Below are positions 1,836 to 33,490 of a DNA stretch of 64,000 bases, one piece after another. The stretch comes from Selaginella moellendorffii (Eukaryota; Plantae; Lycopodiophyta). The number at the start of each line of letters is the position of its first letter. Within the stretch, counting starts at the first letter, position 1. The stretch covers positions 496,001 through 560,000 of the forward strand of contig NW_003314332.1 in assembly GCF_000143415.4 (NCBI RefSeq), read 5' to 3'. Below the pieces are notes generated by a model that did no database searches, had not been told where the DNA came from, and saw nothing but the letters and a program-made list of their open reading frames with translations. The position numbers and the translations under genes are program-made.

Positions 1836-3988
1836 ATGTCCGACTCGTGCCTGGATGTGGAGGGCTTTCCAGTCGGCCTCGACACGGAAATGCAGGCGCT
1901 ACCCGCCTACAATCGCAAGGAAAAGTCTCTGGGCCTCCTGTGCGAGAAGTAAGTCATCGATGCTCTTTGTACACCTCTTGCGCTAAGCCCAACTCCCAAA
2001 TTGCAGCTTCCTCAGCTTGTATGGAGCTGAGCAAGGCACCGAGTGCATCAGCCTGGACGAAGCAGCATTCCGGCTAGGTATGTCTTCTTCTTTGAAAACA
2101 CTCTCCAGAGGATTTTTTTCTCCAAAACAAAGCTCAAGAACAAACACTAGGAATTCAGAAAGATCAACTTTTATTCTGGGTCTCGTTCTATCAGGTGTGG
2201 AAAGGAGGCGCATCTACGACATTGTAAATATTCTCGAGAGTGTAGAGGTGAGTAGTATACCATTAGAAGCCTTTGGTGTCATTGCACTTGTGTGTCTTTG
2301 GCATGACCAGGTGCTGGTGAGAAAAGCCAAGAACTGTTACATGTGGTACGGGTTTACGAGGCTTCCGCAGGCTTTGAAGGAGATGAAGGTACACACAGGC
2401 TGAGATTGTTTACAGTCTGAGAATGCTGCTTGTAACCAGCAAGCGGCTCTTCGGGAATATGGACTGGATGGCTGGGGAAGCGACAAGCATGAGGTGAGTT
2501 TGTCACTTGTATCTCGCTTGTTCCTGCTAAGGCTGTTTTGTGGACTGGCCAGGAGCACCACCACGATGACAGCGCGCTTGGAACACAGGAGTCTATCAAC
2601 ATGCCTGATAGTTCTACTGCGTGTCCATATACTGAGTCGTACAGCTTCTACAAGCCCAAGAGCAAAGCAGGTGACCTTGGCTGCATTGCCTTTGCCGTTT
2701 CAAGTGTTTTTTCAGATTGTAGGCGCGAGAAATCCCTTGGTCTGCTAAGCCAGAAGTTTGTGCAGCTGTTCCTCATCTCTCAGGTGGTCTGTTCTAATGC
2801 TACATGCGGTCGCTAACCTTGGACCCTGTGTACACGCAGACACAGGTAGTTTCGTTAGATGAAGCCGCCAGAGTTTTATTCGGAGGATGCACTGACCCTT
2901 CGAAGCTCAAAAGTAAGCTGTGATTTTTGCTTGGCATCGTGGTGCTTGACTTTGGTTTGCAGCAAAAGTCAGGCGCCTCTACGACATTGCCAACGTGTTG
3001 ACCTCGCTTCAGCTGATTGAAAAGGTTGGCCTTCCTTGCTGTAGGCTGTGATTAACGCTTTTCACAGACTCACGGGACGGAGAACCGGAAGCCTGCATTC
3101 AAATGGCTTGGAGTGAGAGACAATGGCAAGTTCAAAAGTTTCTTACGTGGCTTACGTGGTGCTTATCTCTTCCAGGAGTCCTTTTCAAGAAACGCCAGTT
3201 CCGGCCGTGTAAGCCGACCGATCCGTTCGCAGCCAACGCCACCAAGCGGCAAACACTGAAGCGCGGGGCGGTACCTTACGAACAACACCACACGGGTAAA
3301 CGATCCAACTTGAAACCCTTGCAGCCCAAGTGTGCAAGCTTTGCAGGAAGCACTTCTCTTGCTTGTAACACTAGTGGTCATGCTGACGGAGTTGCATTTG
3401 TTGACGCATCATCCTATGCTGCTGCTGCTGCTGCTGCTTCTGCTTCTGCCGCTCCTGTCCCCCCTGCGGGCTTCCCATATAGTATGGTGCATTTTGGTGG
3501 TGCTGCTGCTCCTTGTGGATGGTTGCATGCGTGGGATGGTGGTGGACGTGATTCATGCAGGTGTGCGGATTATAGGTGCAGCCATTCATGCTCCATGTTG
3601 CCTTCGTTTGCAGCTGAGTGCTCCTGTTGCCTGAATGACTTGGTGGTGCCAAGATGTCCTCCGGCCAACCTTTGTCAATGTCCTTGTAGCATAATGCGTG
3701 GGCTGGGTGCAGGACTGGGTGGAGGTTACGGCACCAACAGCACCACCACCTCCAATCAGCAGCAGCTACAGCAGTGCCCACTCCACTTTGGGATTGCGGC
3801 TGCGATGCAGTACCAGAACGAGAGTGAGTTTTCACCAAGCTTTTTCTCGCTGTTAACCCGTGAAGTTGTGGCATGCAGCGTTGAACGGCGTGCTTGCACA
3901 CTACGTCGAGTGCTGGAGAAGTATGTGCTTTCAAGGCCAGCAGCGTGGGCTTGATCCCACGTCGTGTGATTCGGCATTTAAAAAGTAG
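1836..3988 (+). CDS. DEL1: Atypical E2F (DEL/E2FE-type) transcription factor, multi-exon
   Basis: Two E2F DNA-binding domains (YNRKEKSLGLLCE...GVERRRIYDIVNILES; RREKSLGLLSQKFVQLF...VRRLYDIANVL..L.LIEK, RKPAFKWLG) split by GT-AG introns. C-terminal YQNE.L....HYVECW motif. ATG 1836, stop TAG 3986-3988. Confidence 0.9.
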
Positions 3989-4419: not shown

Positions 4420-5592
4420 CTAGTTTTCAGAGGGTGGCATTGGAATACCACACCCTGGAAGTAAATTTAATCTTGGAGAGATAAAATTGCCATGTAGAAC
4501 AAATTGAGATGATACCTCATAGAAATGTTGTGTGTAATGTGTGCCATCCCAAGTAACATGTTCTCCAGGATTTTTACAAGTAGTGCCATTTGTTTGTCCA
4601 CAACCACAAAGTGCTAAACCTTCACAATGATAATCATTTCCTGGTATACCACAACAAGCACTTTTATAGCTTTTAAATTTGTAGTGATGCATGTTCTTTA
4701 TCACATGATCAGTTGCTGCAAACCAATCAAAATGATATATGTTAATATCATCATTTTGGTAATTAATATCAATCACCATATCCAAAAGCTGTTTGTTAAA
4801 GGTTTCAAATACTTGTGTAACCTCAACAATACATCCAAACTGATCAGTATGTGTATTAAAGATATCAGCAAATTCTGTAAATGCAGATATATAACCTGGA
4901 GCACAATCTGAACGAGGAAGATTCACTACTAGGAAATTTCTTGCTCCAGATTCATATAAACTCAAAATACTGGATTTAATTCCCGATAGCACAGATGGAA
5001 TAGTGGTATTTAAAATATCTGGAAAACGTGGCATCATATAATTAATATCATTGCCCCCAATCTCAATAAAATAAAGTGCTTTGTTATATAATACATTTTT
5101 ATCCACTTCAGCTCCATCTTGATAATCTTTCACTTGTTCTTTGTGCCATAAAAAATCTGAAACTTGTGCAGATAATATGTGAGGTGTAGCAAAAGGATTA
5201 CTATAAACAGAAGGTGGACAAACAGTAGCTCCAGCATAACCGAAATTCAAGCTTGTAAAATAAGTACCATTATATGTTAAGCTAGGACGTGCAGAATCAC
5301 CGAGCTTGAGACCACGAGTTAAGAAATCAATAAGCAAATATCCATCACTATATCTCCCAGTAGGCTTTCCAATTGTCATTCCATATGGAAAAGATCCGGA
5401 AAGACTAGTATTACCAGAAGCAAGTGCTTCAAGATTACGATTTCCAGTGTCAGATAGTGAATCAGTAAGACTGAAGATTGCAGTCGGGCACAATACTGAT
5501 GGAAAATTTTGACGAGCATTAACTTGAAACATAAAAAACATCAAGAGAACCACAAATGACATCAAAGATATGGGAGCCATTGAAAAAGTCAT
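4420..5592 (-). CDS. GDSL esterase/lipase, intronless and AT-rich (copy 1)
   Basis: Signal peptide; FSLTDSLSDTGN, PYG...PTGRYSDG, NFGYAGAT, IEIGGND and WDGTH blocks. The ATG at 5580 aligns with the start of copy 2. Confidence 0.92.
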   Translation of the reverse strand: MTFSMAPISLMSFVVLLMFFMFQVNARQNFPSVLCPTAIFSLTDSLSDTGNRNLEALASGNTSLSGSFPYGMTIGKPTGRYSDGYLLIDFLTRGLKLGDSARPSLTYNGTYFTSLNFGYAGATVCPPSVYSNPFATPHILSAQVSDFLWHKEQVKDYQDGAEVDKNVLYNKALYFIEIGGNDINYMMPRFPDILNTTIPSVLSGIKSSILSLYESGARNFLVVNLPRSDCAPGYISAFTEFADIFNTHTDQFGCIVEVTQVFETFNKQLLDMVIDINYQNDDINIYHFDWFAATDHVIKNMHHYKFKSYKSACCGIPGNDYHCEGLALCGCGQTNGTTCKNPGEHVTWDGTHYTQHFYEVSSQFVLHGNFISPRLNLLPGCGIPMPPSEN

Positions 5593-5749
5593 GAGAATGA
5601 ATGAATTGTGTTTGAAGAATGATTATATTTATATGTGTGTGTGGTGTTATTTTTATTTCACTCTTGATATTTTTACATAACAAGGTTCACAATTATACAC
5701 TTCATTTCTATTTCTATCGAAATTAGTCTCAATCATAAATTCCTAGCAG

Positions 5750-8019: not shown

Positions 8020-8181
8020 GTCGAGAGAGTGTTCGTCGTCATGCCGACGAGGAATGGGCTGCTCCCAGCGAACGGGAAGATCGCTGGGAGCGGCACCTTA
8101 GAGAGCTCTTCGATCAGATGGACGTGAAGGCACCATCGTCATGAGTCTTAACTCCTCCTCTCTAATATCATGAGAGGGTAG
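8020..8181 (+). pseudogene. Collapsed remnant of PPR-B (paralog of 16578-18500)
   Basis: Colinear blocks matching PPR-B: GTTC.TCGTCATGCC.ACGAGGAA, GGGCTGCTC, ACGGGAAGAT, AGAGAGCTCTTCGATC.GATGGA.GTGAAGG, CTCCTCCTCTCTAATATC.TGAGAGG.TAG. Confidence 0.85.
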
Positions 8182-8209
8182 CCTTTGCTCGATCAGTCAA
8201 GCGAAACCG

Positions 8210-10084
8210 ATGCTCTCCAAGGCCGAGTGCGTGGATCTCATCACTTCCGCCATGAATTCCTCGCAGGCGATCGATGCCCACTCGCGGATCGCGGTCGCCC
8301 AGAAGCAAATGCTGCCTGGCGATCGCTGCTACCTCTCCAATCTCGTCATCCTTCGCTATGGCAAGCTGGGCGAGATCCAGCGCGCACGAGCGGTCTTTGA
8401 TTCCATGGAGCGACGCGATTGCCACTCGTGGGTCATTATGTTCTTGGCACACGCCCAAGAAGGGCATCTCGCTGCTGCCAAGGAGCTCTTCGATCGGATG
8501 CCAAACAAGAACCTCGTGGCCTGGAATTCTATCCTCACAGCGCTCTCCCAGCACGGCTCCGTCGATCAGGCTAAGAACATCTTCGATTTCGCGCCCCTCC
8601 ATGATCGAATTTCCTGGAACGCAATGCTAGCGGCGTATGCCGGGATTGGGCATCGTATGCTCGCGCAGGAGACATTCGATGCGATGCCCGAGCGCGATAT
8701 CGTGTCCTGGACGGCGCTTCTCACCGCCCTCGCAAGAAGCGGCCGATCGGATCGCGTGGAGGAGCTGTTCGCGGCGATGCCAGTGAGGGATCTAGTGTCG
8801 TGGAATTCGATCGTCGGCGCATATGCCCTTGGAGGGCATCTGGAGGAGGCCAAGCGAGCGTACGATTCCATGCCCGAAAGAAACATTGTCTCGAGCACGA
8901 CGATGCTTAGCGTTTTTGCGCAAACCGGGCACATTGGCAGCGCCAGAGCGGTGTTTGATTCGATGCCCGAGAGGAACTTCGTGTCGTGGAGCGCTATGAT
9001 CTGTGCATATGCCCAAGCAGGGTATCTACGAAATGCGGAAGAACTTCTGGCGTGCTCGGCCGAGGTGAGCGTCGTGTCCATCAATGCGATCATGGCGGCT
9101 TACACGCGCAGGGGCGATTTCGATCAAGCTAAGCAGCTGTTTGATTCCATGCGCGAGCGGGATCTTGTTTCGTGGAACTCGCTTCTTGCGGCATTTGCCG
9201 AAAAAGGGGATCTTGATTCCGTAGAAACTCTGTTTTCTAGAATGAAAGAGATCGATGCTGTGTCGTGCAACACAGTTCTGGCAGCATACTCGCAAAATGG
9301 AAAGCTTTCCAGCGCTGTAAACGTATTGAGTTCAATGCCCGAGCGGCATCTTCTCTCCTGCAACGCTATGATCGCGGCCTTTGTTCAAAACGGGCATTTG
9401 GAGGATGCCAAGTGCTTGTTCGACGACATGCCCCAGAGAGACGTTTTCTCTTTCACGGCTTTGCTCTCCGGCTATGGCGGCCAAGGCTTTCTCCAGGAAG
9501 CGCGAGAGCTCTTCTTCCAAATACCCGAGCAAGACACAGTCTCTTGGAACGCAATGCTTTCGGCATTCTCCACGAAAGGGCTTCTTCCAGAGGCAAATCG
9601 CCACTTCGACACAATGCCAGACACGGATCTCGTGTCCTGGAACTCGATCATAGCCGCATACGCTCAGAACGGCCACCCCTCCACCGCTGAGGAGCTCTTC
9701 TTCGCAATGAACACGCAAGGGGTGACCCCGGACGAGACATCCTTCATTTGCATCGCTTTGGGTTACAGCCATGGCGGGGACGTTTCCTCAGCGTGCTGCT
9801 GCCTCGCTTCGATGGTAGCGGAGTTTGGATTGAAGCCCTCGAGGCAAGTCTACTGCTGCATGGTAGATTGCTTGGGACGCACAGGGCGTGTGGAAGAGGC
9901 CGAGGATCTTGTGAGGAGCATGCCTTACGAGCCAGTGTCCGTGGATTGGACGTGCTTGCTGGGAGCAAAGTCTAGAAATCGAGGACAAAGATCTCATGCT
10001 GTTCTCCTAGAACAAGCTTTGAGTGTAGATTCTAGGAATTCTTCTGCCTATGTTCTTCTGGCAAATAGCAGCAATTTTGTTTAG
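8210..10084 (+). CDS. PLS-class pentatricopeptide repeat protein (PPR-A) with truncated E domain
   Basis: Tandem ~31-aa repeats (FDSMPERNxVSW), YCCMVDCLGRTGRVEEAEDLVRSMP, and SAYVLLAN at the end; intronless. Confidence 0.9.
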   Translation: MLSKAECVDLITSAMNSSQAIDAHSRIAVAQKQMLPGDRCYLSNLVILRYGKLGEIQRARAVFDSMERRDCHSWVIMFLAHAQEGHLAAAKELFDRMPNKNLVAWNSILTALSQHGSVDQAKNIFDFAPLHDRISWNAMLAAYAGIGHRMLAQETFDAMPERDIVSWTALLTALARSGRSDRVEELFAAMPVRDLVSWNSIVGAYALGGHLEEAKRAYDSMPERNIVSSTTMLSVFAQTGHIGSARAVFDSMPERNFVSWSAMICAYAQAGYLRNAEELLACSAEVSVVSINAIMAAYTRRGDFDQAKQLFDSMRERDLVSWNSLLAAFAEKGDLDSVETLFSRMKEIDAVSCNTVLAAYSQNGKLSSAVNVLSSMPERHLLSCNAMIAAFVQNGHLEDAKCLFDDMPQRDVFSFTALLSGYGGQGFLQEARELFFQIPEQDTVSWNAMLSAFSTKGLLPEANRHFDTMPDTDLVSWNSIIAAYAQNGHPSTAEELFFAMNTQGVTPDETSFICIALGYSHGGDVSSACCCLASMVAEFGLKPSRQVYCCMVDCLGRTGRVEEAEDLVRSMPYEPVSVDWTCLLGAKSRNRGQRSHAVLLEQALSVDSRNSSAYVLLANSSNFV

Positions 10085-10360: not shown

Positions 10361-11755
10361 ATGGAGGAAGAGGGGCGAGCGGGAGGAGCGGTGGATTCTC
10401 CCAGCGATGACGCCTGGCTGAGCAGCAATCTCCAGTGCAAGCGGCCATGGCAGGAGCTGAGCGGCTCGCTGGGCGACCTGGGGACGTTCATCCCGATCGT
10501 CATCGCTCTAGCTCTCGTCAATGGTGTGGATCTTGGTACGTCTCTCATCGCCACGGGCATCTACAACATCCTCACCGGCGTGCTCTTTGGCGTGCCGATG
10601 CCCGTCCAGCCCATGAAATCCATCGCCGCGGTGGCCATCACCGAATCCAAGCACCTCACTGTGGATCAGATCATGGCGGCGGGGATCACCGTGTCCGCGA
10701 TCGTGTTTGCGCTTGGAATCACTGGCTTGATCCGGGTCGTCGCTTGGATCGTTCCATTGCCGGTGGTTCGTGGGATCCAGCTCGCGCAGGGGCTCTCTTT
10801 CGCGGTCAAGGCTGTCAAGTACGTGATGAAGGATCAAAATCTCTCCAGCGACAAGGCAAAGGGTGATCGCCCATGGCTGGGCTTGGATGGGATTCTCCTG
10901 GCAGTGATTTGCTTCGCATTCATCGTGCTGGTGAATGGATCCGGCGAGGGATACGAGTACCTTGTGACGAACAGTGATGGTGGTGGTCGTCATCACGACG
11001 ATCGTGAAGAACATCGTGAGGAACATCAAGAGGGATCGTCAAAGCTCGTGAGGTTTTTCCGGAGGATCCCGACTGCCTTGGCGGTGTTCGTGCTCGGGAT
11101 CATCCTGGCGTTCGTGAGGAGGCCACACATTCTCAAGGAGCTTCACTTTGGCCCGGCCACGCCCCGGATCGCTCGAATCTCTTCGCACGACTGGAAGACT
11201 GGATTTGTGAGAGCTGCGATACCGCAGCTCCCTCTCACCATCCTCAACTCGGTGGTGGCGGTTTGCAAGCTCTCGAGCGATCTCTTCCCGGCCAAGAAGG
11301 ACGGCGTGTCTCCGACCAAGGTCTCGGTGAGCGTGGGGCTCATGAACTTGGTGGGCTGCTGGTTTGGAGCTCTCCCGGTTTGCCATGGCGCTGGAGGACT
11401 GGCCGGGCAGTATCGTTTCGGAGCCACGAGTGGGGTGGCGGTGGCCATGCTGGGTGTTGCCAAGCTTGTGCTGGGACTTCTCCTGGGGAGCTCGCTGGTG
11501 AGAATTCTCCAAGCTTTTCCAGTGGGACTGCTGGGGATCTTACTGCTCTTCTCCGGGGTGGAGCTGGCGATGGCGTGCCGGGATCAAACTAGCAGGAAAG
11601 ACTCGTTTGTGATGCTCAGCTGCGTCGCCATCTCGCAAGGATCCAATCTCGCGGTGGGATGTGTTTGTGCCATCCTCTTGTATGCGCTGCTCCAGGCCAG
11701 AGAGATGGATTGTTGGGCGATTGCAAACTCTTGGCCGCGAGGTTCCTCGAAGTAG
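10361..11755 (+). CDS. MOT1: Molybdate transporter (MOT1 family), intronless
   Basis: ELSGSLGDLGTFIPIV, PMPVQPMKSIAAVAI, RGIQLAQGL, IPQLPLTILNSVVAVCKLS and PVCHGAGGLAGQYRFGA signatures. Confidence 0.95.
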   Translation: MEEEGRAGGAVDSPSDDAWLSSNLQCKRPWQELSGSLGDLGTFIPIVIALALVNGVDLGTSLIATGIYNILTGVLFGVPMPVQPMKSIAAVAITESKHLTVDQIMAAGITVSAIVFALGITGLIRVVAWIVPLPVVRGIQLAQGLSFAVKAVKYVMKDQNLSSDKAKGDRPWLGLDGILLAVICFAFIVLVNGSGEGYEYLVTNSDGGGRHHDDREEHREEHQEGSSKLVRFFRRIPTALAVFVLGIILAFVRRPHILKELHFGPATPRIARISSHDWKTGFVRAAIPQLPLTILNSVVAVCKLSSDLFPAKKDGVSPTKVSVSVGLMNLVGCWFGALPVCHGAGGLAGQYRFGATSGVAVAMLGVAKLVLGLLLGSSLVRILQAFPVGLLGILLLFSGVELAMACRDQTSRKDSFVMLSCVAISQGSNLAVGCVCAILLYALLQAREMDCWAIANSWPRGSSK

Positions 11756-11813
11756 ATCGATTGGTTCCATTGAAATAAAGCTTCGATTTGTTTGAGAAGA
11801 TCATGGATCCACA

Positions 11814-13523
11814 CTAAGCTTTCGCCATAGCTAGCATTTGGCTGATGCCTGTATAGCAGCTATAATCTTGAGGCACAGCTATCCTCTTGAGAGTCTCGCG
11901 AACTACGGCCAAAACTTCGTCGCATCGGACAACACGCGGCACTCCCGGCACTCCGGTCACTTGCACAGGATCCAGGTGAGTGCCTCGAGCACCACAGACC
12001 TCCGAAACACTTTCGTCTTCACGGATCGCTACTCCGGCAACGCAAACTTCACTGAGGTTCCAGACGTGCTTGACTCGCAGCAGTGGGAAGCGACCATTCG
12101 CAGCCGGCAGGAAGAACCTCGTCTCTCCCTGGTACGTGATCCACACTGCAGCGGCGGGGTATGGATCTCGCACGATGGATCTCAGTGGTGGCGAAGAGAA
12201 GGCCTCGGAAGAAACTCGCCCGGCTACTGCATTCTCCACTGTCTCATGCGATAACTTGCAGCCTCGAGCTCCAAGTTCCCATAGCCACGGCTGGAAGTCC
12301 GGCCAAGCTTCGCAAGACAGGCCAAGGACGTGCTTTGCAAACTCGCCGAGAACTTCGCTCTCTCGCGCCAGCATCTTGGCGATCATCTCATCGTCTACGT
12401 AGTGATGGCGCAAGCCAGTGGACAGCTCGAGCAAGCAGGAAAGCAGCTTGTGGCAATCGGACGCGGCAGCTTCCTTGTTTCCGGAACCACTGTACAAGCT
12501 CTCCATCTCCACGCGATATGCAAGCTCGAGATCGATCAGCATGAACTGGTTCTCCGCAACGAGGACGATGTTCTGTGCTCGAACATCCCGGTGCTTGCGT
12601 CCCACGAGGTGAAGATGGTAGAGCGCCAAGAGCACGTCAAACGCTACCTTGCACAGCTTCTCCCCGTGAAGAACCATCCCTTCCACACGCCTCGTACCGC
12701 GCGGCTTGGTAACGATGCCGGAAACTTCACCATACTCGCGCTGCAAGCTCAAGCTTCCAGATGGGCGATAGAAACCACGACGTACCAACACTGGCAAGCT
12801 CCGGGACATGATCCCTGCGTCGCGCAGATCGGCAAGCGCAGCACACTCTAAGCCGATCTTGGCGCACAAGTTCCTGCCTGGATCGTAGTCTAGCTTGAGC
12901 ACAACTTCTTCGCCACCACCGGAGATCATCGATGCGCTATATACCGAGGTCGAGAAGGAGATGTGAAGAAGCTCACCGAGCTCAAGATCTAGCACGCCAT
13001 CGCTGCTGGCAAAGCTGCGAAACGAGCCAACGTCACCTTTGGAGAATGGACCGTAGTATCCTCGAAGCTGGAATGGTTCTTCGGGACTGCCCCTCCTCTC
13101 TGAAGAGCGCTGGACGTGGTCGATGAAGAGTTTGCCTTCTCGCCCAGCGCCCTGTATCCAAGCTGTCCACGGCCAGAGCCCAAAGTGACGAGCAATCTGC
13201 CATAGCTGGACCTGGCGATCGCCAGTGAGGGTGAAAGCAGCAACCTGCCTCGGGATTGTTTGGCAGTAAAACAGCTCTTGGGCGATGGCATCTGTGGCGA
13301 GCTCGCCTCGGATGATCAAGGGATCCTCGCGCGTACCTGTTCCACACCCCAGCTGCAAGAGATCTCTCATGCTGCTGCTCTCGCGAACCGCCGTGTTCTC
13401 GACGTAGACGGCGGCCAGTTGCCACTTGCGCTGGACAGCTGATAGCGGAAATGTGTTGTGGATCGCGCGCCAGAAGAAGCCCGGCTCGCCACCATAGCAA
13501 ATCCAGACCCGAGGATCATCCAT
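11814..13523 (-). CDS. Atypical protein kinase-like protein with three copies of an unrecognised ~65-aa domain
   Basis: VVLK, E in helix C (LECAAL), LYHLH...HRDVRAQNIV, FMLIDLELAY. The ATG at 13523 directly follows a telo-box; the ORF is open further upstream (ATG 13817). Confidence 0.7.
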   Translation of the reverse strand: MDDPRVWICYGGEPGFFWRAIHNTFPLSAVQRKWQLAAVYVENTAVRESSSMRDLLQLGCGTGTREDPLIIRGELATDAIAQELFYCQTIPRQVAAFTLTGDRQVQLWQIARHFGLWPWTAWIQGAGREGKLFIDHVQRSSERRGSPEEPFQLRGYYGPFSKGDVGSFRSFASSDGVLDLELGELLHISFSTSVYSASMISGGGEEVVLKLDYDPGRNLCAKIGLECAALADLRDAGIMSRSLPVLVRRGFYRPSGSLSLQREYGEVSGIVTKPRGTRRVEGMVLHGEKLCKVAFDVLLALYHLHLVGRKHRDVRAQNIVLVAENQFMLIDLELAYRVEMESLYSGSGNKEAAASDCHKLLSCLLELSTGLRHHYVDDEMIAKMLARESEVLGEFAKHVLGLSCEAWPDFQPWLWELGARGCKLSHETVENAVAGRVSSEAFSSPPLRSIVRDPYPAAAVWITYQGETRFFLPAANGRFPLLRVKHVWNLSEVCVAGVAIREDESVSEVCGARGTHLDPVQVTGVPGVPRVVRCDEVLAVVRETLKRIAVPQDYSCYTGISQMLAMAKA

Positions 13524-14177
13524 AAACCCTAATTCCGCAAAGTCAACGGTGGTCAACAAATTGGTCAAATTTGTGTGTTCTTGCCATGGAAATTGGAATT
13601 TGGCTTTGCAGCGCGTAGGAATGAGTGGATGAGGAGGTGGTGGTGTGTCCAGGGAGCTGCTATGATTGCCCGGGAATTTATTCCTGTGAAGAATGCATTG
13701 CGTCACAGCTTGAGAATTGGATGTGTAAGTCTCGATGCTAGCAATTGCTTTTTCCATAGCCACGGTGGAAGGATTCGAGTACTTTAGATGATCGATCAAG
13801 GACAAAGAGTGTTCCATGCTGGGTATTGCCAAGATTCCAATGAGAATTCTCCAGTGGGATTGCTGGAGATTTTGCTGTTCTTCTCTGTTAGCGTGCTGAG
13901 AGGTTCCAAAAGGACAGGAGCCTTGTACTCAGAATCAAGTCTCGAAGCATCATATTCTTACAAGAGTATAAATGCTGGCTAATAACAAATTGGAATCTTT
14001 GGATTTGGATTACGAGGAGAGAAAAGAAATCTTTTACGTCAACTCAAGAATTTAGTCAAGGTTCATGCTTTTCAAACTTCCAATGTAAATTCCTGTAGCA
14101 TGCAGTAAAATCTCGTCCATAAATTCATTCGACTCTTTCTTGGAATGGCTCTTTGCTGAAGGATAGTTTTTAGAATC

Positions 14178-16051
14178 ATGGAAGTTTGCTTGTTGCAAGA
14201 CATGGCGGTGGCTTCCTCGAGCTCGTTCGAAGGCATGGTTGTTTCAGTAGCAAAATCACGCTTTTGCTGTGACGAGCTCAAGCTGGCGGCAGCGTCTGAT
14301 CTCTTCCGTAAGATCTTTACCTCTGTCCGCCACACTGGAGCTCGGAACCTGTTTGTGGAGCTCAAGAACTTCCCAGGAGGCGCCCCAGCATTCAAAAAGA
14401 TTCTCAAGTTCGTGGAAGATCAATTTCAGGCCGACCACCTTGATCTCCACACATCCAGCTTCCCCACCTTGTGTGCTGCTGCCAAATACCTGGGCATGCC
14501 ACTGCTTGCTTCTTCTTGTGCTCGCTTCTGGAGCTCTCAGGTGGTGACGACCACGTCCAGCATTTTCGAGGTGCTGGCCATCGTCACCCAAGATCATGGC
14601 GTTGCCCTCTCCGCAGAGGAAAGATCCGAGGTTATCTCCAAGTGCTTCTCGGCGACGCTGCAAGCGCTAGGGAGGAGCAGTCTCCACGAATTCTTCGTCA
14701 ACATGGTGACGATTCTGCCTGTAGGTGGAATCTCTGTGCTCCTCAAGTTCCTCGAGAGAAGAGTGGATTTCTTCTCAATGCAAAGCAAGGTGTGGGACAA
14801 GGCAAGGTACGTAGTGCTTGCGTCGGAACTGATTTTCGTTGCTTGTCCGACCGGTGTCAAAGCTCGAGACGTTCTTCACAGAGCTGGGATTCTTGCCCGG
14901 TTTGTACTGGGTCTGTTTAGAGAGGGCCTCGACTATGCAAAGGACCAAAGGAAACATTGGCTCGTTCCATCTTTTGATGATCACCATGATCTCCACGAGA
15001 GTGTAGCTCTTCTTAACCTCCTTGCTCTCTGCGACTTTCTCCTGGAACAGGATAGTATCACCGCAGACACGAGTACGAGTGACAGGATCAAGGCGCAGGA
15101 AAAGAAGCTCTTCGCACTTTTAGCTGGCTCAGATGCACACTCCAAAGCGAGCACGATTCTTCTTTCGCCAGGATCGGCTATGTTACTGGCTTTCAACTTT
15201 GGAAAGCATCACGAGGACAAGAAGCAGCTCGCGGTGGAGTTTATAGAGCACTACCTGCAGCAAATCTCCCTCACGCAGCTGTCCCGGGAAGAGACTCTAG
15301 AGATTTGCAAGTTCATCTCGGCCCACTCGCTCTCGCACGACAATTTGTTCAACCATGTCTGGCGGGTAGTCACAAGGAGCACGACACTGTCCAGGAAGAG
15401 GCTCCAGGAGCTGATGGACACGATATCGAGCAGCAAGCTGTCTACGGAAAAGTTGATGGAGAAACTCCAAGAGGTTCGAGTTCTAAGCAAAAGGCTACAG
15501 CGAAAATGCAGCTACTGCATGGACATACCCACGAGCGAGGAGGAAGAGGGCGATCAATCGGAAAGAGAATCAAGCGGGGAAGAAGTCGAGCACCAGTGGT
15601 CGTTTACGTGGGATGATGATAAGCACAAAAAGAAAAGGAAGAAGGTACGTGAAACATGATTCTTTCAAGAGAGCTCATATAAGATTGTGTGTAGAACCGG
15701 ATGTGGATCACGGTCGTGGCACCGCAGACGTCAAGCTCCTTCTCTCTCATGGTCTCGAGCAACCGCAAGGTCGAGAGCATCGAGCAGAAGCTCAAGGCCA
15801 AGATGGGGATGCCCAAGGGGGACGCGTGCCAACTCACGTACAATGACAAGCTGCTAAGATCAAACAAGAGAATCAGCGAGTGCAACATTTCCGACTTCGC
15901 GACCTTGACAATCCGAAATACCACGAAACGGCCAAGGTAATTAATCTCTCCTCGAAACACCCCTCTTTGACGATTGCTTGAATTGCGCAGAGTGGAGGAG
16001 CAGCCACAAGCTCGAAAAATTCTAGTCACCTACCAGCGCCGCAAGAATTGA
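14178..16051 (+). CDS. Divergent BTB/POZ (NPH3-like N-terminus) protein, predicted to splice to a ubiquitin-like domain
   Basis: LKNFPGGAPAFKKILKF and LCAAAKYLGM resemble the NPH3-type BTB. In-phase 50-bp GT..AG intron 15645-15694 joins it to a Ubl (KVESIEQKLKAKMGMP...QLTYNDKLL..NKRISECNI); possible second intron 15937-15990, stop 16049-16051. Confidence 0.6.
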
Positions 16052-16577: not shown

Positions 16578-18500
16578 CTAGCCTCTCACGATATTAGAGA
16601 GGAGGAGATAAGGAACCTCGTTGCTGGGATCCATCTCCGCGGCGGCATTAGCAGCAACGTCGCCTCGATCCACATCGCCATGGATGCTACAAGCTCCCAG
16701 CAGATTCTTCCACGCACCAACATCAGGAGTAATAGGCATCCTTCCAACCAGTTCTTCACACTTGCCGAGCTCTCCGGCTCGACCCAAGATCGCCACCATG
16801 CACTGGTAGTGCTCGATCCTCGGCGTCACTCCATAGTCGGCCAGCATCGACGAGAAGTGGAGCTTGCTGGGACCGACGAGGCCGACGTGAGAGCACGCAC
16901 TAAGAATCGCCGTGAGCGTCATGTCGTCCTGTTGAATCCCATCTAGATCCATTCTCTGGAAGATCCCGAGAGCTCTCTCGTACTGCCCGAACTGGGAGTA
17001 GCCGGTGAGCATCACTGTCCACGAGACAACGTTCTTGTCCACCGGCATAGCGTCGAAGAGAGCTCGCGCTTGATCGAGCTGGCCAGCGTTGGCGTAGGCC
17101 TCGATCATCGTGTTCCAGGCCACCACGTCGGGCCTGGCGATAGCGTCGAAAAGAGCTCGAGCCTCGCGAAGCTTTCCTTCTCGGCCATACACCGACACCA
17201 TCGTCGTGAGTGCCACCGCGTCCTTCACTTCCATCCGATCGAAGAGCTCTCTCGCTGCTGCAAAGTCGCCGCTGCCAGCGTAACTCACGAGCATCGACGT
17301 CGTCACGATCGTCCCCCGGTCCGGCATGGAAGAGAAGATCTCCCTGGCCTCCGCTAAGTTGCCACAGTCGCCGTGAGCAGCAACCATGCTGCTACACGCA
17401 GCCTCGTCCCTCTGCGGCATCTTCTCAAACACCTCCATCGCCGCGGCAATCTTCCCGTGCTGGGCGAATCCAGCGAGCAGCCCGTTCCACGAGAGGACGT
17501 TCCTCGTTGGCATGACGAAGAACAGGCTCTCGGCTGCTACGACGTTCCCGGCCTGGCCGAGCGCCTGTACTAGCGCCGTCCATGACACAACATTCCTCGA
17601 TGGCATTCTTCCAAAGTAGGTTCGAGCTTCCCGGATGAATCCTCTGTGCGCGAGCCCAGACACCATGACACTCCAGGAGACGACGTTCCGGTTGGTCATC
17701 CTCTCGAAGATCTGCCGAGCCAGACTCATCTGTCCACTCTGCGCGTAGGCCGATAGCATCGCGTTCCAGGCGATGAAATCTTTCTCCGGCATCACGGTGA
17801 AGAGAGCCTCGGCCTCGGACAGATGCCCGGCTTGGGCATTCGCTGCCATGACGGTCGTGAAAGAAACCACGTCCACCGCCGCCATCTTTTCGAAAGCCTG
17901 CGAGGCTTGGACACAACAACCGTTAGCGGCATACGATTGCAGCAACGCGTTCCACGACAGGATGTCTCTTCTGTGCATCCGATCGAAGATCTTTCTGGCT
18001 TCCTCGACATGCCCGGCTTGGGCATACGCCGTAAGTAGCAGAGTCCACGAAACCACGTCCGGATCCGGCATTCGATCGAGCAGCTTGCGGGACTCCTGGA
18101 GATTTCCAGCTTGTGCGTATGCCGCGATCATGTGGTTCCAAGTTACCACATCGCGATCTGGAGCCTCGTCGAAGAGTTTCCTTGCCTCGTCAAGAGAGCC
18201 ATTCTGGGTGTAAGCCTTGACCATCATGTTCCACGAGAACTTGTTGGGCTCGAGAAGAACGTCGAACACTTTCCTGGCCTCGCCGGGGCTGCCGCATTTC
18301 CCATACATGTCGATGAGGAGGTTGCCAAGGAATCTATTCTCGAAGTGGCGGCTGTTTTGGATCTCGTTGTGGAGGAGCTTTCCCTGTCCCAAGTTCCTGG
18401 AGTTCGAGCACTCTTTGATCCTCTCGGCCAGCTCGGTTTGTTCGTCGTAGTGAGTGAACGCATTGTGAAGAGCTCTAGAGGCTTTTCTTCTCAGCTGCAT
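16578..18500 (-). CDS. PLS-class PPR protein (PPR-B) with truncated E domain
   Basis: LIDMYGKCGS, many SW-type repeats, ILSACSHVGLV, HYQCMVAILGRAG, WKNLLGACSIHGD, YLLLSNI. Confidence 0.92.
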   Translation of the reverse strand: MQLRRKASRALHNAFTHYDEQTELAERIKECSNSRNLGQGKLLHNEIQNSRHFENRFLGNLLIDMYGKCGSPGEARKVFDVLLEPNKFSWNMMVKAYTQNGSLDEARKLFDEAPDRDVVTWNHMIAAYAQAGNLQESRKLLDRMPDPDVVSWTLLLTAYAQAGHVEEARKIFDRMHRRDILSWNALLQSYAANGCCVQASQAFEKMAAVDVVSFTTVMAANAQAGHLSEAEALFTVMPEKDFIAWNAMLSAYAQSGQMSLARQIFERMTNRNVVSWSVMVSGLAHRGFIREARTYFGRMPSRNVVSWTALVQALGQAGNVVAAESLFFVMPTRNVLSWNGLLAGFAQHGKIAAAMEVFEKMPQRDEAACSSMVAAHGDCGNLAEAREIFSSMPDRGTIVTTSMLVSYAGSGDFAAARELFDRMEVKDAVALTTMVSVYGREGKLREARALFDAIARPDVVAWNTMIEAYANAGQLDQARALFDAMPVDKNVVSWTVMLTGYSQFGQYERALGIFQRMDLDGIQQDDMTLTAILSACSHVGLVGPSKLHFSSMLADYGVTPRIEHYQCMVAILGRAGELGKCEELVGRMPITPDVGAWKNLLGACSIHGDVDRGDVAANAAAEMDPSNEVPYLLLSNIVRG

Positions 18501-18752
18501 CAAACCAATTCGAGGCTGCCTGTAAGCAAGTTTCGTGCTAGACCTTTCATGGAATTCTATGATTGAAAAGACCTCCTAGTGTCGTGACATCGAAATGGCT
18601 ATTATATTTAGCCAATATAGATAGAAATAGAAATGAAGTGTATAATTTGTAAACCTTGTTATGTAAAAATATCAAGAGTGAAATAAAAATGACACCACAC
18701 ACACATATAAATGTGATCGTTCTTAAGATAATTCATTGTCATAACTTTTTCA

Positions 18753-19916
18753 ATGGCTCCTATGGCATCACTGTCATTTGTTTCGGTTCTTTTGATGTTT
18801 CTTGTGCTTCAAGTTGGTGCTGGGCGAAGAAGTTTTCAATCGTTCTTATGTCCTACTGCAATCTTTAGTCTTACTGATTCACTATCTGACACGGGAAATC
18901 GCAATCTTGAAGCGCTTGCATCAGGGAATTATAGTATTTCTGGACATCTTCCATATGGTATGACAATTGGAAAGGCTACTGGGAGATTTAGTGATGGATA
19001 TTTGCTTATTGATTTTTTAACTCGTGGTCTCAAGCTTGGTGATTCTGCACGTCCTAGCTTAACATATAATGGTACTTATTTCACAAGCTTGAATTTTGGT
19101 TATGCTGGAGCTACTGTTTGTCCATCTACTAATAATTTTTCTACACCTCACATATTATCGGCACAAGTTTCAGATTTTTTATGGCATAAACAACAAGTGA
19201 AAGATTATCAAGATGGAGCTAAAGTGGATAAAAATGTATTATATGAGAAAGCACTTTATTTTATTGAGATTGGGGGTAATGATATTAATTATATGATGCC
19301 ACATTTTCCAGATATTTTAAATACCACTATTCCATCTGTGATATCCGGAATTAAATCTAGTATTTTAAGTTTATATGAATCTGGAGCAAGAAATTTCCTA
19401 GTGCTGAATCTTCCTCGTTCAGATTGTGCTCCAGGTTATATATCAGCATTTGGACCATATGCTAATATTAATGGTAGTGGTATACATAGTGATAACCTTG
19501 GATGTATTGTTGAGGTTACACAAGTATTTGAAACCTTTAACAAGCAGCTTTTGGATATGGTGGTTGATATTAATGATCAAAATGATGACATTAATATATA
19601 TCATTTTGATTGGTTTGCAGCAACTGATCATGTGATAAAGAACATGCATCACTACAAATTTAAAAGCTATAAAAGTGCTTGTTGTGGTATACCAGGAAAT
19701 GATTATCATTGTGAAGGTTTAGCACTTTGTGGTTGTGGACAAACAAATAGCACTACTTGTAAACATCCTGGAGAACATATTACTTGGGATGGAACACATT
19801 ACACACAACATTTCTATGAGGTATCATCTCAATTTGTTCTACATGGCAATTTTATCTCTCCAAGATTAAACTTACTTCCAGGGTGTGGTATTCCAATGCC
19901 ACCCTCTGAAAATTAA
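18753..19916 (+). CDS. GDSL esterase/lipase, intronless and AT-rich (copy 2, inverted paralog of 4420-5592)
   Basis: Same TDSL, GRFSDG, GGND and WDGTH blocks; C-terminal third nearly identical to copy 1. Confidence 0.92.
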   Translation: MAPMASLSFVSVLLMFLVLQVGAGRRSFQSFLCPTAIFSLTDSLSDTGNRNLEALASGNYSISGHLPYGMTIGKATGRFSDGYLLIDFLTRGLKLGDSARPSLTYNGTYFTSLNFGYAGATVCPSTNNFSTPHILSAQVSDFLWHKQQVKDYQDGAKVDKNVLYEKALYFIEIGGNDINYMMPHFPDILNTTIPSVISGIKSSILSLYESGARNFLVLNLPRSDCAPGYISAFGPYANINGSGIHSDNLGCIVEVTQVFETFNKQLLDMVVDINDQNDDINIYHFDWFAATDHVIKNMHHYKFKSYKSACCGIPGNDYHCEGLALCGCGQTNSTTCKHPGEHITWDGTHYTQHFYEVSSQFVLHGNFISPRLNLLPGCGIPMPPSEN

Positions 19917-20284: not shown

Positions 20285-22348
20285 TCAGCTCACTTCGCCT
20301 TCCACATATATGTTACACAACAGCATGTAGTGAGCCGCAGCTCGAGGATCCATCTCAAAAACCTTGCTTGCAACTCGCGATCCACGCTCCAGATCCCCAT
20401 GAGTTCTACAGCCACCGAGTAGAGTCGTCCATGGAACGCAGTCGGGCTCGAGTGGCATTCGAGTGACAAGTTCCTCAGCTTCCTCCAGATGACCCGCTCG
20501 GCAGAGAACGTCGACGATGCAGTGGTAGTGCTCCAGCGCTGGCTTCACCTCCGTTGCGTGATCGGAGCTCATTGATACGAACTGGTGCAAGCTCTTCTCC
20601 ACCATGCCGGTGTGACTACACGAGTGCAAGACGGAGATGAAGGTGATCTCGTCGGCATCAATCCCGTCTTGGTTCATCTGCCAGAATGTCTCCAGTGCCT
20701 CCTTGGACTGTCCGTTGCAAGCGTGAGCTTCGATCATCGCAGTCCACGACGACAGATCTCTGCTTTCCAAAGAGTTGAACAGCTCTCTCGACTGATCCAA
20801 GCACCCCTTGTGAGCGTACGCGACGATCATCGCATTGAGGTTCTCCCACTCCGGCATCTTCTCGAGAAGATCAAATGCGAGCGCTGGGTAGTGGTTCTGT
20901 GTGCAAGCTGCCACCATTACGGCCCAGCAGCTCTTGTCCCTGTGAACCATGCCGTCGAAGATCGCTCTAGCTTCGCAGACATGCCCGCTTTGGGCATAGG
21001 CGTGCACCATTGCAGTGCACGAGACGACGTTGTGCTCTGGAATCCTGTCGAAGATATCTTTCGAGTCGTAAGAGTTCCCAGCTCGAGCATAACCAGCGAC
21101 CAAAACCGACCACGGGATCACGCACTTCCTCGGCATCCGTGAGAACAAGTCGAAGGCCTCTCGAAGATAACCGTTCCGAGCGTACGCCTCGATCATAGTC
21201 GTCCAGGCAACCGAATCCTTCACCGCCATCTCGTCAAACAAGTCGCGTGCCTCGCGGACGAGCCCCGAGTCGCCACAAGCGGCGATCATCGCAGTCGACA
21301 GCATCACGTCGCGATGCCGCATAGAGTTGAAAAGAAACCTCGCTCGATCCAGGGAACTCGCGGTGATCATCGCAGTGCAAGCGTCGAGAGTGAGGTTGTC
21401 CACCGTGAGTGAGTCAAGCATCGCCTCGGCCTCGGCAATGTGGCCATTCTGCGCGTACACGATGATCATGAAGTTGGCCACGCCTTCTTCCTCCACTGGA
21501 ATTCGCTCGTAGAGATCTCTCGTCTCCTTGAGATGCCCGTTCTGGGCATATGCCGTGAGCATAGCCTTCCAGGCAACGACGTCCTTCTCGGGCATGGAAT
21601 CAAACACCTCTTTCGCGTCGAGGATCTGCCCACGCTGCCCATAAGCTGTGATCATCGCTGTCCAGGACACGCAATTCGCCTGGGGTGTGTTGTCCAGCAT
21701 CCCTTTTCCAGTATCAAGATACCCCCCTTGAGCAAATGCCACGATCATGGAGCTCCAAGACACCGAATCCCACTGCGGCATCCTCGCAAAGATCTGGGCA
21801 GCGAGAGGGACATCGCCGATCTGCGCGTAGGCGACGAGCAGCACCGTCCAGGAAACCACGTCTGGATGTGGCATCACATCGAAGAGGGCCTTGGCCTGAT
21901 CGACGAGCCCTGCCTTGGCGTATGCCGAGATCATCAGCCTCCAGCTGACGAGCGTGCGATCCGGCCAGGAATCGAAGAGATCTCGAGCTTGATCGATGTA
22001 GCCATTGTCGGTGTAGGCCTGGATCATGATATTTCCAGTGTAGCAGTTCTTGCTCGCCATCTCCTGGAAGATCTGCCTCGCTTCGTGGACGCGGCCACAC
22101 TTCCCATACATTGTGATGAGGAGATTGGAGAGAAAGACATTGCGGCGATGCTTGCCTTGGAGAATGCGGGCATGAATCTCTCGTCCTCGCGCGAGATCCT
22201 TGAGCTTGGCGCAAGAAGTGAGAATCCTGGCGCATTGCTGGACCTCCGATTCACAGGAGAAGCGATTCTGTGCAATGGCATCGCCGAGGGATCGCTTAGC
22301 CGGCTCTTCGAATCCCAGAGCCCTAGCAATCCGCCATAGCTGGAACAT
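20285..22348 (-). CDS. PLS-class PPR protein (PPR-C) with truncated E domain
   Basis: LITMYGKCG, tandem PPR repeats, HYHCIVDVLCRAG, WTTLLGGCRTHGD, HYMLLCNIY. Confidence 0.92.
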   Translation of the reverse strand: MFQLWRIARALGFEEPAKRSLGDAIAQNRFSCESEVQQCARILTSCAKLKDLARGREIHARILQGKHRRNVFLSNLLITMYGKCGRVHEARQIFQEMASKNCYTGNIMIQAYTDNGYIDQARDLFDSWPDRTLVSWRLMISAYAKAGLVDQAKALFDVMPHPDVVSWTVLLVAYAQIGDVPLAAQIFARMPQWDSVSWSSMIVAFAQGGYLDTGKGMLDNTPQANCVSWTAMITAYGQRGQILDAKEVFDSMPEKDVVAWKAMLTAYAQNGHLKETRDLYERIPVEEEGVANFMIIVYAQNGHIAEAEAMLDSLTVDNLTLDACTAMITASSLDRARFLFNSMRHRDVMLSTAMIAACGDSGLVREARDLFDEMAVKDSVAWTTMIEAYARNGYLREAFDLFSRMPRKCVIPWSVLVAGYARAGNSYDSKDIFDRIPEHNVVSCTAMVHAYAQSGHVCEARAIFDGMVHRDKSCWAVMVAACTQNHYPALAFDLLEKMPEWENLNAMIVAYAHKGCLDQSRELFNSLESRDLSSWTAMIEAHACNGQSKEALETFWQMNQDGIDADEITFISVLHSCSHTGMVEKSLHQFVSMSSDHATEVKPALEHYHCIVDVLCRAGHLEEAEELVTRMPLEPDCVPWTTLLGGCRTHGDLERGSRVASKVFEMDPRAAAHYMLLCNIYVEGEVS

Positions 22349-22700
22349 CCATTCTTTCGAGAGCTAGAGGCTAACGGAATATGCCACCGCACAGCTTCTA
22401 GCAGAATATGCCACGGCACATAACGCTAACGACAATAAGGGCCCGTGGGCAGCAAACCCTAGGGGGCCCTTGGCGGAGCGAGAAGGGGTGTGGCGGCGTC
22501 GATCACCGGTGAGTCCTGTGCCACATCCTGACTGCTGTCTCGCAAAGATCGCTGGTTAGATCGCCCGGAGAGTCTAGGGTTTTGTCGCTCTCCCCCTGTT
22601 AGATCTTCCTCATCGCGCCACTAGCTTGAGCGGCGGCGTCACTGCACTGCCTGATAGCGGTTTTGTGAAGCGATTCACCTGACGCAGCGTTCTTATCTCC

Positions 22701-31675: not shown

Positions 31676-33490
31676 CTACCAGTAATCTCCACAAGAACAC
31701 ACGCCGTCTTTGAAAAGGTGAAACCTGCTAGTGTCCCGGACGATGATCTCGCGACCTTCCATGGTCCTTGACACGAACTTTGTGAACTCGTGGCAGTCCC
31801 GGCACACTCTCAGGTTCTTTATAATATGAATGGGAGAGTTTCTTTTACCAGGAACGCTCATTGCTCCAAATGCCAGTGCCAGTCTCTCGCTGTGGAGCTT
31901 CCTCTCCACGCTCCCCAGCAGCAGTGGCCGCGTGTCCGGGACGTATCCCAGCTCGAGAGCTCGCGCGTGGAGCTCGTCCAGGTACGAGTAAATCTCTTTC
32001 GCCTGTGGATGCCACTGACTTCTTACGCAGAACTCGTGAACTCGGCCTCTCACCACGATCTTGCTCGAGCCCGGCTCTTTCTTCGGGCACCGGGACTCCA
32101 TGAGACGAGCAACGGCCTCGGCCTCCTCCGGCATCCCTGCGTCGGTGTACATGCTCGCCAGCGTCAAGTATCCCGCTCGGCAGTGAGGAAGAAACTCAAA
32201 CACCTTCTCGGCAGCGCGCTTGCCTCGCTCCAGATCGCCATAGCTCCGGCACGACCCCAGGAAGATCGACCATGTTATGGCCTCCTCCTTGACGGGCATT
32301 CGGGCAATGAAACTCTCGGCCTCTTCCAGCTTCCCGGCTCGTCCCAGCATATCCAGCATGCAGTGGACGTGGTGGGCAGTGGGTCTCAGCTCGTGATCTC
32401 TCACCAGCGATGCGAAGTGGAAGCGGCCCTCGGGGACGAAGCCGCCATGGCAGCAAGCTTCGAGCACTCCCACGAAAGTTACGTCGTTGGGTCTCACACC
32501 CTCCTGCTGCATGAGCGTGAAGAGCTTGAGAGCTACCCGAGGATGGCCGTGCCGGGCATACGCTTCCAGGATGGCGCTCCACACCACCACGTCTCTCTCC
32601 GCGAGCTTGTCGAATATCTTCTTGGCTTCCGCGAGTCCGCCACACTTGCCATACATGTTGAGCAGCGCGGTGCCGAGCACGGTGTTGCTCTCCAGCCCGG
32701 CTTCGATGATCCGGCAGTGGATGGTCCGCGCGTCGGTGATCCGGGCCACGAGAACGCAGGCGTGAACCACGGTCACGAAGGTGATCACGTTGGCTTGGAT
32801 CCCCTCGGCGTCCATTCGGTGGAACATCTCCAGGGCCTCGGTGCCGTGCCCGGTCTGGGCATACGCGGCGATCATGTTGCTCCAGCTGACAACGTCTTTG
32901 ATCGCGAGCTCGTCGAAGACTTGGCGCGCTCGATCGATGCTGCCTACCTTGCTGTACATGTTGAGCAGCGCGGTGGCGACGACTGGATGCGATCCAAAGC
33001 CCACCTCGAGTGCCAGGTCGTGGACGAGTTTTGCCCAGCGATGAAGCTCCGGCCCGGCGAATGCGTTGAGCACCGACGTGAAGGTCACGTAGCTGGGCTG
33101 GATCCCGTCCAGGAGCATCCGGAGGAAGATCACGATGGCGTCGCTGGATCGATCGTTCTGTGCGTAGGCGGAGATGACGGCGTTCCACGAGACGATGTTC
33201 CTTCTCTTCATTCCGGAGAATGCCCGAGAGAGATCTTCCATGCCCCCGCATTTGCCATACATGATGAGGATGTGATTGGCGAGGAACATCACGTCCTGGT
33301 GCCCGGTGGCCACGATCCTGGCGTGCAAGCGCCGGCCATTGCCCAGATTCTTGCTCCGGCCGCAGGCGAGGAGGAGATCTAGGTATTCTGTGACCTCGCG
33401 GCTGCCTTGATCCAGACGGAGAATGTAGCGTGGCCGTCGGGAAGTATCGATCGCCGTGGAAATTCTGCTGCTGCTGCAAATGGAGATCAT
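31676..33490 (-). CDS. PLS-DYW PPR protein (candidate C-to-U RNA editing factor)
   Basis: PLS repeats, E/E+ region (KKEPGSSKI), GYVPDT, HSERLA, KNLRVCRDCH, ends CSCGDYW. Confidence 0.95.
   Translation of the reverse strand: MISICSSSRISTAIDTSRRPRYILRLDQGSREVTEYLDLLLACGRSKNLGNGRRLHARIVATGHQDVMFLANHILIMYGKCGGMEDLSRAFSGMKRRNIVSWNAVISAYAQNDRSSDAIVIFLRMLLDGIQPSYVTFTSVLNAFAGPELHRWAKLVHDLALEVGFGSHPVVATALLNMYSKVGSIDRARQVFDELAIKDVVSWSNMIAAYAQTGHGTEALEMFHRMDAEGIQANVITFVTVVHACVLVARITDARTIHCRIIEAGLESNTVLGTALLNMYGKCGGLAEAKKIFDKLAERDVVVWSAILEAYARHGHPRVALKLFTLMQQEGVRPNDVTFVGVLEACCHGGFVPEGRFHFASLVRDHELRPTAHHVHCMLDMLGRAGKLEEAESFIARMPVKEEAITWSIFLGSCRSYGDLERGKRAAEKVFEFLPHCRAGYLTLASMYTDAGMPEEAEAVARLMESRCPKKEPGSSKIVVRGRVHEFCVRSQWHPQAKEIYSYLDELHARALELGYVPDTRPLLLGSVERKLHSERLALAFGAMSVPGKRNSPIHIIKNLRVCRDCHEFTKFVSRTMEGREIIVRDTSRFHLFKDGVCSCGDYW

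Follow-up and report, generated by a model that had tools for sequence, protein, structure and literature searches.

A Selaginella moellendorffii protein family combining a minimal kinase-like domain with predicted ubiquitin-fold modules

A 64,000-nt window of the Selaginella moellendorffii genome, which is the whole stretch of DNA analyzed here and the source of all coordinates below, contained an open reading frame (ORF) on the minus strand (13523..11814) encoding a 569-aa protein, P0002, in which a minimal protein-kinase-like domain is bracketed by three copies (R1, R2, and R3) of a predicted ubiquitin-like domain (Ubl). This ORF had been reported in a first-pass annotation, and we found it at that place with the quoted R1, R2, and R3 strings present; the chance of a frame this long is p ~5e-10 on base composition alone. 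We conclude that the protein belongs to a real, lineage-restricted Ubl-kinase family, which is a variant of the existing kinase-plus-Ubl design drawn from an uncatalogued beta-grasp family. The reading that we favor, at a probability of about 0.5, is that the three ubiquitin-fold modules would act as non-conjugated docking domains, positioning the minimal kinase and bringing partners or substrates to it.

R1 and R3 are clear copies of each other, as had been noticed before. Their local BLOSUM62 alignment scored 120, compared with 22 ± 4 for shuffled sequences, and none of 5000 shuffles reached that value. Because the two domains share 37% protein identity with a DNA match of only 24 bases (E 0.021), their duplication appears to be old and maintained at the protein level. 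A related protein, P0004, ended in a copy matching R3 (z 13-16), and R2 matched the N-termini of two further relatives, P0005 and P0006, with scores reached by 2 and 1 of 1000 shuffles, respectively. Alignment with P0005 placed the start of R2 about 10 residues before the string quoted in the first-pass annotation. Judged from these alignments, the repeat has two subtypes: subtype A (R2), which lies directly before the kinase and also adjoins it N-terminally in the relatives, and subtype B (R1, R3, and the end of P0004).

The relationship between the subtypes was assessed with profiles whose domain boundaries were picked by eye. The subtype A profile scored R1 at 10.7 bits and the P0004 copy at 6.0 bits (each reached by 0 of 3000 shuffles), and R3 at 3.0 bits (73 of 3000), while the subtype B profile scored R2 at 4.5 bits (22 of 3000). 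A profile-profile comparison of A with B gave 27.8 against a maximum of 18.1 in 200 column shuffles, with a probability of 66% and over the last 27 columns only. Since the boundaries were set by eye, R2 is regarded as a probable rather than certain copy of the R1/R3 domain. A leave-one-out test of R2 (8.0 bits, 0 of 2000 shuffles) was discounted in favor of the A-versus-B comparison, as its profile had contained the positional equivalent from P0005. R2 may also resemble the N-terminal domain of the conserved plant protein At3g07150 in its helix-loop pattern and in a terminal G-x-x-x-x-P/A-x-x-V/I-x-G strand. No further copy of the repeat or of the kinase was found elsewhere in the window.

The domain had been described as unrecognised, which held for family databases: no Pfam family matched any of five domain copies or the extended R2 at E 10, and a search of PDB sequences with the repeat profile gave no match. 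At the level of fold the description no longer applies, as R1 is predicted to be a ubiquitin-like beta-grasp. AlphaFold2, supplied with a five-row alignment, modelled R1 with a predicted local distance difference test (pLDDT) of 88 and a predicted template modelling score of 0.73, and three of the five models exceeded a pLDDT of 84. The model consisted of strands 5-10 and 13-18, helix 27-34, strand 39-41, helix 52-58, and strand 69-73. Foldseek returned no match at E 0.001, and the chains that it listed were those of ubiquitin, SUMO, Elongin B, and RAWUL. In a Foldseek-independent search of 48,161 chains, the top match was the ubiquitin-like domain (ULD) of TBK1 (Z 6.5, root-mean-square deviation 2.8, 69 residues aligned), tied within 1 Z with Elongin B, RAWUL/polycomb ULD, Atg12, BAT3, and PB1; SUMO was also among the top rows. 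Twenty-eight chains reached Z 5 and none reached Z 8. Among the best 50 rows, 46 were ubiquitin-like by title or by knowledge of the chain, and four could not be placed. A second fold search gave Z 6.7 to Elongin B, and a library of viral structures returned mostly ubiquitin-like proteins. The superpositions covered 62-69 of 74 residues at Z 6.5-6.7, and the identity of R1 to solved Ubls was mostly 5-15% (9% to the TBK1 ULD).

As the individual scores were middling, the beta-grasp assignment rests on the uniform fold class of the matches. R1 is thus predicted to have the topology of the ubiquitin-like superfamily while fitting no particular known subfamily, and the prediction extends to R3 by sequence and to R2 through the weaker profile link. 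Taken together, the two subtypes of the repeat are predicted to form a ubiquitin-fold family that has not been catalogued. Crinkler, DIX, and TDP-43 N-terminal domains were not among the matches listed in the fold searches, which does not exclude them. The OPCA motif of PB1 domains (D-x-D/E-G-D) was not matched by regular expression in any of seven copies, a result that excludes types I and I/II only; type II PB1 domains lack this motif. Additionally, none of the seven copies carried a Gly-Gly C-terminus after the last strand, and conjugation of these domains is therefore unlikely. A complex prediction for R1 with R3 (score 0.09, mark 0.34) was evidence neither way.

The kinase between R2 and R3 carried the residues listed for it in the first-pass annotation: K210, E226, H311-R-D313, N318, and D331(LE), together with a KPxG hinge (273-276) and D356. 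The beta3 Lys, HxD, Asn, and Mg-binding Asp were kept in all four full kinases of the family (P0002, P0004, P0005, and P0009; 34-43% identity), and K210, E226, D313, N318, and D331 make up the residue set expected of a catalytically competent protein-kinase-like fold. GxGxxG, DFG, and APE were absent from the kinase part of the same four members but were present in the receptor-like kinase of the window, which served as a control; the regular-expression matches at 125 and 146 fell within R2, outside the kinase. The control gene itself (28626-31484, plus strand) has a low-complexity insert of about 500 residues between its DFG and APE regions.

Pfam Pkinase matched the domain at 25.2-27.5 bits, below its cut-off of 31.7 (27.5 bits corresponds to E 2.6e-6), and blastp to the receptor-like kinase gave E 7.8. 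With the missing motifs and the sub-threshold score, the domain does not belong among the standard plant eukaryotic protein kinases (such as RLK/Pelle, MAPK, or CDPK), in agreement with the earlier proposal. Matches to PDB sequences were largely confined to the catalytic-loop stretch, and TBK1 was not among the 60 matches listed in either PDB sequence search. No PI3/PI4-kinase family of Pfam matched at E 1, and none of its families matched the post-kinase part or the tail. Matches to LanKC/LanL, MAD6, PD-T4-6, Bud32, and Kdo kinases in NCBIfam, PADLOC, and PHROGs were rejected, as they covered mainly the generic catalytic-loop stretch and those of NCBIfam fell far under the cut-off.

All relatives found for P0002 came from the same species. 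The closest stored protein was SELMODRAFT_425023 of S. moellendorffii (99% identity over 277 residues), and a representatives search of 1.84 billion proteins, made with a single sequence rather than a profile, found five relatives at E <=0.001, all of them S. moellendorffii models. A word-indexed homologue search with P0002 gave none among 7992 candidates, although it was insensitive and missed even P0004; the same search with the domain alignment gave 3 of 7997 and with the whole-protein alignment 2 of 7996, all already known, which is weak evidence of absence. Pattern scans found no relative among 283 stretches from metagenome contigs, 132 from viral contigs, or 152 from prokaryote genomes. 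These results support the earlier suggestion of lineage specificity as far as the searches reach. Restriction to the S. moellendorffii lineage is provisional because of the one-sequence query, the insensitivity of the other searches, and the species content of the collections.

The module counts differ among members: P0005 and P0009 have one N-terminal Ubl and the kinase, P0004 has a partial N-terminal copy, the kinase, and a C-terminal copy, and P0002 has three Ubls. P0006 and P0007 (SELMODRAFT_423524 and 413371) consist of broken family pieces joined to coatomer-beta-like sequence and are probably pseudogene fragments merged by gene prediction. Furthermore, short contigs of sequencing runs X2 and X20 matched part of R3 (11990-12049) or R2 (13158-13193) and then diverged from the window; by eye, the subtype B motif G-T-x-x-D-P follows in frame in one of them, and another is similar to P0007. 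From these partial matches, it appears that more family members exist. In the literature searched, outside which most subscription papers lie, neither the Ubl-Ubl-kinase-Ubl layout nor such a Selaginella family was found described, and the accessible part of PMC6119762 contained nothing on a spikemoss Ubl-kinase family.

In the docking reading, the protein would be a soluble and active minimal kinase whose Ubl modules provide docking surfaces. The best 19-residue hydrophobicity mean was 1.5, located within the kinase, and since no strongly hydrophobic segment was found the protein is probably soluble. R2 and the kinase may form a fixed core, in which R2 would pack on and regulate the kinase in the manner of the TBK1 ULD; a structural or regulatory role is suggested because subtype A is always paired with the kinase. 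The subtype B domains R1 and R3 would be mobile add-ons that set what the enzyme binds; their gain at either terminus suggests a role in partner selection. Having no APE-type segment, the kinase would depend for its switching less on a canonical activation loop than on partner binding or clustering. The biological setting is likely a stress or defence pathway with fast turnover, although this step of the proposal has the least support.

The TBK1 ULD binds both the TBK1 kinase domain and substrates, according to the accessible part of PMC8994244. TBK1 and IKK-epsilon resemble the spikemoss protein in that a non-conjugated Ubl stands next to a protein kinase domain, and the TBK1 ULD was the top fold match. 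However, TBK1 has one Ubl after the kinase, whereas the spikemoss protein has three, on both sides. Members of the TBK1/IKK family have a canonical kinase, a ULD, and a scaffold dimerization domain, while a coiled-coil scaffold, GxGxxG, DFG, and APE are all missing here. The likeness is therefore taken as an analogy and not as membership.

The first-pass annotation had compared the kinase with fungal-type or Crinkler-associated effector kinases carrying header domains, and a corresponding explanation is that P0002 is a Crinkler/RHS-type (CR) conflict protein, in which a Ubl header is joined to a CR or FunK1 kinase, the nuclease has been lost, and the gene, perhaps of fungal or mobile-element origin, encodes a cytotoxic or defence effector. 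The available text of PMC5289972 reports that CR headers are ubiquitin-like, that CR proteins occur in land plants, often with a kinase coupled to a restriction endonuclease (REase), that kinase-bearing forms account for about 1/6 of CR C-termini, and that atypical Crinkler headers lack the LxLFLAK motif. As far as that text and those of PMC6131194 and PMC12957317 go, the spikemoss protein shares with CR proteins an N-terminal beta-grasp (R1, predicted, at the level of fold class only), a divergent kinase, and modular shuffling. In contrast to the CR proteins described there, it has no LxLFLAK match, REase or NTPase domain, or Crinkler Pfam match, and it has a Ubl after the kinase as well, so that the Ubl domains are not purely headers: R3 is C-terminal.

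The LxLFL motif was absent from all seven domain copies by regular expression, and no PD-(D/E)xK-like pattern occurred in four linker or tail segments by a simple regular expression, which is a weak test; the linkers ahead of the kinase (8 and 24 aa) are too short for a nuclease. Pkinase_fungal (PF17667, FunK1) matched the catalytic core weakly, at 17.7-18.2 bits, below its cut-off of 24.1 and below generic Pkinase (P0002 at 18.2 bits, E 0.0011), and covered about 60 of 387 profile positions in P0002. The same profile matched P0005 at 11.2 bits (E 0.14, aa 188-263, including the KPxG hinge), and it gave no row for P0004 or P0009. In the ESM Atlas, the clusters nearest to P0005 were fungal protein kinases at 0.80, which is a lead only, as one third of shuffled proteins reached 0.8; residues 1-160 of the public model P0003 gave no usable match there. 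The P-x-G hinge and the non-DFG Mg-binding loop are features that we take to be FunK1-like. The kinase class thus leans weakly toward FunK1 while reaching no family cut-off. The likeness proposed earlier survives in the predicted fold class of the header and fails for the motif, the nuclease-like segment, and the Crinkler Pfam match; P0002 is accordingly not filed as a Crinkler/RHS member, and we consider the conflict-protein explanation unlikely.

The Ubl copies might instead be ubiquitin mimics that link the kinase to receptors or shuttles of the ubiquitin-proteasome system, as in plant UbDK/PI4K-gamma proteins. The accessible part of PMC3741686 describes plant UbDK as a UBL joined to a PI4K-type kinase with protein kinase activity and UFD1 binding. 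Like UbDK and type II PI4K-gamma, the spikemoss protein is a plant protein in which N-terminal UBL domains accompany a protein kinase, and its gene has a BTB gene and a ubiquitin-family ORF as neighbours, although a plant gene neighbourhood is weak evidence. However, UbDK has a PI3/PI4-type kinase and a UBL that can be aligned to ubiquitin, and neither profile matched the spikemoss protein. With no Pfam ubiquitin family matching the repeats and their identity to solved Ubls so low, this mimicry seems quite improbable.

Upstream of 13523 the frame stays open as far as an ATG at 13817. A start at 13523 is more likely because both public gene models begin there, the GC content at third codon positions is lower in the upstream extension (0.49) than in the ORF (0.63), and an insertion of 11 bases at 13615, inside the extension, is present in sequencing run X8. 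The public 290-aa model (P0003) assumes an intron that deletes the catalytic loop and shifts the frame ahead of R3, so that the catalytic core and R3 appear to be lost from it. No joint was listed in the gene, and single ungapped contigs ran across the intron: X1 (11699-13538), X2 (11639-13671), X6 (11699-13590), and X14 (12160-12957). X1, X2, and X6 are RNA by the guess of the tool. An RNA origin of these runs would mean that the gene is transcribed without splicing and that the public model is wrong, whereas DNA runs are silent on splicing. Over about 13700-15400, a region that takes in the BTB neighbour, the DNA-guessed run X8 had cover and the three RNA-guessed runs had none; the contigs of these three ended at 13538, 13590, and 13671. 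This is only a weak hint that the three runs are RNA. The kinase-spanning contigs, which are strandless, extend on the other side to 11699 or 11639, into the coding end of the neighbouring MOT1 gene. Contamination was ruled out, as the flanking genes are plant genes.

Several observations weigh against the docking reading. No sequencing run over the gene is on record as RNA. R1 is the sole confidently modelled domain, the full-length protein having a pLDDT of 34 in single-sequence AlphaFold2, and the fold scores, which stopped at Z 6.5-6.7, may mean merely a common arrangement; a shared fold is also not a shared function. In pairwise comparison R2 is not significant, its score being reached by 527 of 5000 shuffles against R1 and by 845 of 5000 against R3, and it is a weaker copy than the first-pass annotation implied. 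Additionally, two of the five relatives (P0006 and P0007) look decayed, and the polymorphism within the ORF did not differ from neutral. After four of 25 listed variant sites were dropped as lying outside the ORF, the remaining 21 comprised 15 nonsynonymous changes (one of them a stop two codons before the end) and six synonymous changes. The ratio of nonsynonymous to synonymous polymorphism (pN/pS) was 0.79, or 0.90-1.02 with transition weighting, without a difference from neutrality (p 0.39-0.60, n=21). A dN/dS near 1 had been named in the first-pass annotation as counting against its reading, and such a value remains compatible with these data.

Alternatively, the gene may be young and shuffled, or in decay, perhaps encoding a pseudokinase, and may drift unselected within a small birth-and-death family. 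The counts of nonsynonymous and synonymous variants, the broken pieces fused to coatomer-like sequence in P0006 and P0007, the missing GxGxxG, DFG, and APE motifs, and the difference of the two public models at 4 of 290 residues would all fit such a history. On the other hand, the 569-codon frame is intact, with no indel listed in any of four runs, and 21 sites have little power, the more so as six of them came from X20 contigs only (depth 2.6-5.2) and within-species ratios run high. None of the 21 variants fell at K210, E226, D313, N318, or D331. Plain drift is opposed because the catalytic residues are kept across paralogues of 34-43% identity and because R1 and R3 resemble each other as proteins with little likeness in DNA. 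The polymorphism fits relaxed or diversifying selection, and purifying selection is not demonstrated by these sites; we consider unselected drift rather unlikely.

A more specific form of the defence setting would make the protein a lycophyte-specific sensor kinase, in which the three divergent Ubls serve as integrated baits: pathogen effectors that bind or cleave Ubl proteins would engage R1 and R3, cluster or release the kinase, and trigger defence. This is a long shot. If true, this would be an immune receptor of the kinase-fusion type, assembled from a new Ubl family separately from NLRs and angiosperm tandem kinases, that has so far been hidden by a wrong gene model. If the defence reading holds more generally, the protein could provide a small, soluble, and testable immune module of a non-seed vascular plant. 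The family suggests that the kinase-plus-Ubl design of TBK1, UbDK, and Crinkler proteins was reached independently in a plant lineage. Kinome surveys that use the public gene model would miss the gene, because its catalytic core and R3 are apparently dropped.

Table 1. Features of the Ubl-kinase gene and its surroundings on the minus strand, in window coordinates
Feature	Position	Strand	Residues or length	Basis or remark
ORF, layout Ubl(R1)-Ubl(R2)-kinase-Ubl(R3)-tail	13523..11814	minus	569 aa	Translation; intron not required
R1, predicted ubiquitin-like beta-grasp, subtype B	13305..13514	minus	aa 4-73	AlphaFold2 model and fold searches
R2, probable divergent copy, subtype A	13059..13277	minus	aa 83-155	Alignments, shuffle tests, and subtype A versus B profile test
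Minimal protein-kinase-like domain	12234..12992	minus	~aa 178-430	Pfam Pkinase, motif positions, and PDB sequence matches
R3, subtype B copy	11952..12152	minus	aa 458-524	37% identity to R1
C-terminal tail, no family	11817..11951	minus	45 aa	0 Pfam matches at E 10
Putative GT..AG intron of the public 290-aa model	12291..12697	minus	407 bases	Splicing reproduces P0003 exactly
In-frame upstream extension, probably untranslated leader	13524..13817	minus	98 codons	Third-position GC content, X8 insertion, and no Pfam match

The window is gene-dense plant DNA with genes for PPR proteins, GDSL lipases, MOT1, BTB, and F-box/LRR proteins, pieces of NUP160, and a long terminal repeat (LTR) retrotransposon. 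The MOT1 molybdate transporter gene (10361-11755, plus strand) and the kinase gene are convergent, their stops being 58 bases apart; the MOT1 stretch matches many variant contigs, which suggests several paralogues. On the other side, a single-ORF BTB/POZ gene (14178-15659, plus strand) lies head to head with the kinase gene and is followed by a small ubiquitin-family ORF (15695-15940, plus strand; 35.4 bits).

Two long single-ORF GDSL lipase genes and four PPR genes (one DYW) were located at 4423-5622, 8174-10084, 16578-18575, 18732-19916, 20285-22363, and 31676-33553, the PPR gene at 8174 being called from translation only. A 283-codon ORF rich in Ala, Cys, and Gln (3103-3954, plus strand) had no Pfam match and may be an exon of a larger gene. 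A single-ORF Fic/DOC gene (35916-36830, plus strand), unusual in a plant, was identified by Pfam at 30.2 bits against a cut-off of 24, with no match in NCBIfam or PADLOC; Arg takes the place of the usual catalytic His in its Fic motif. Finally, four ORFs of the LTR retrotransposon (56193-60504, plus strand) carried between them pieces of gag, protease, reverse transcriptase, RNase H, and integrase.

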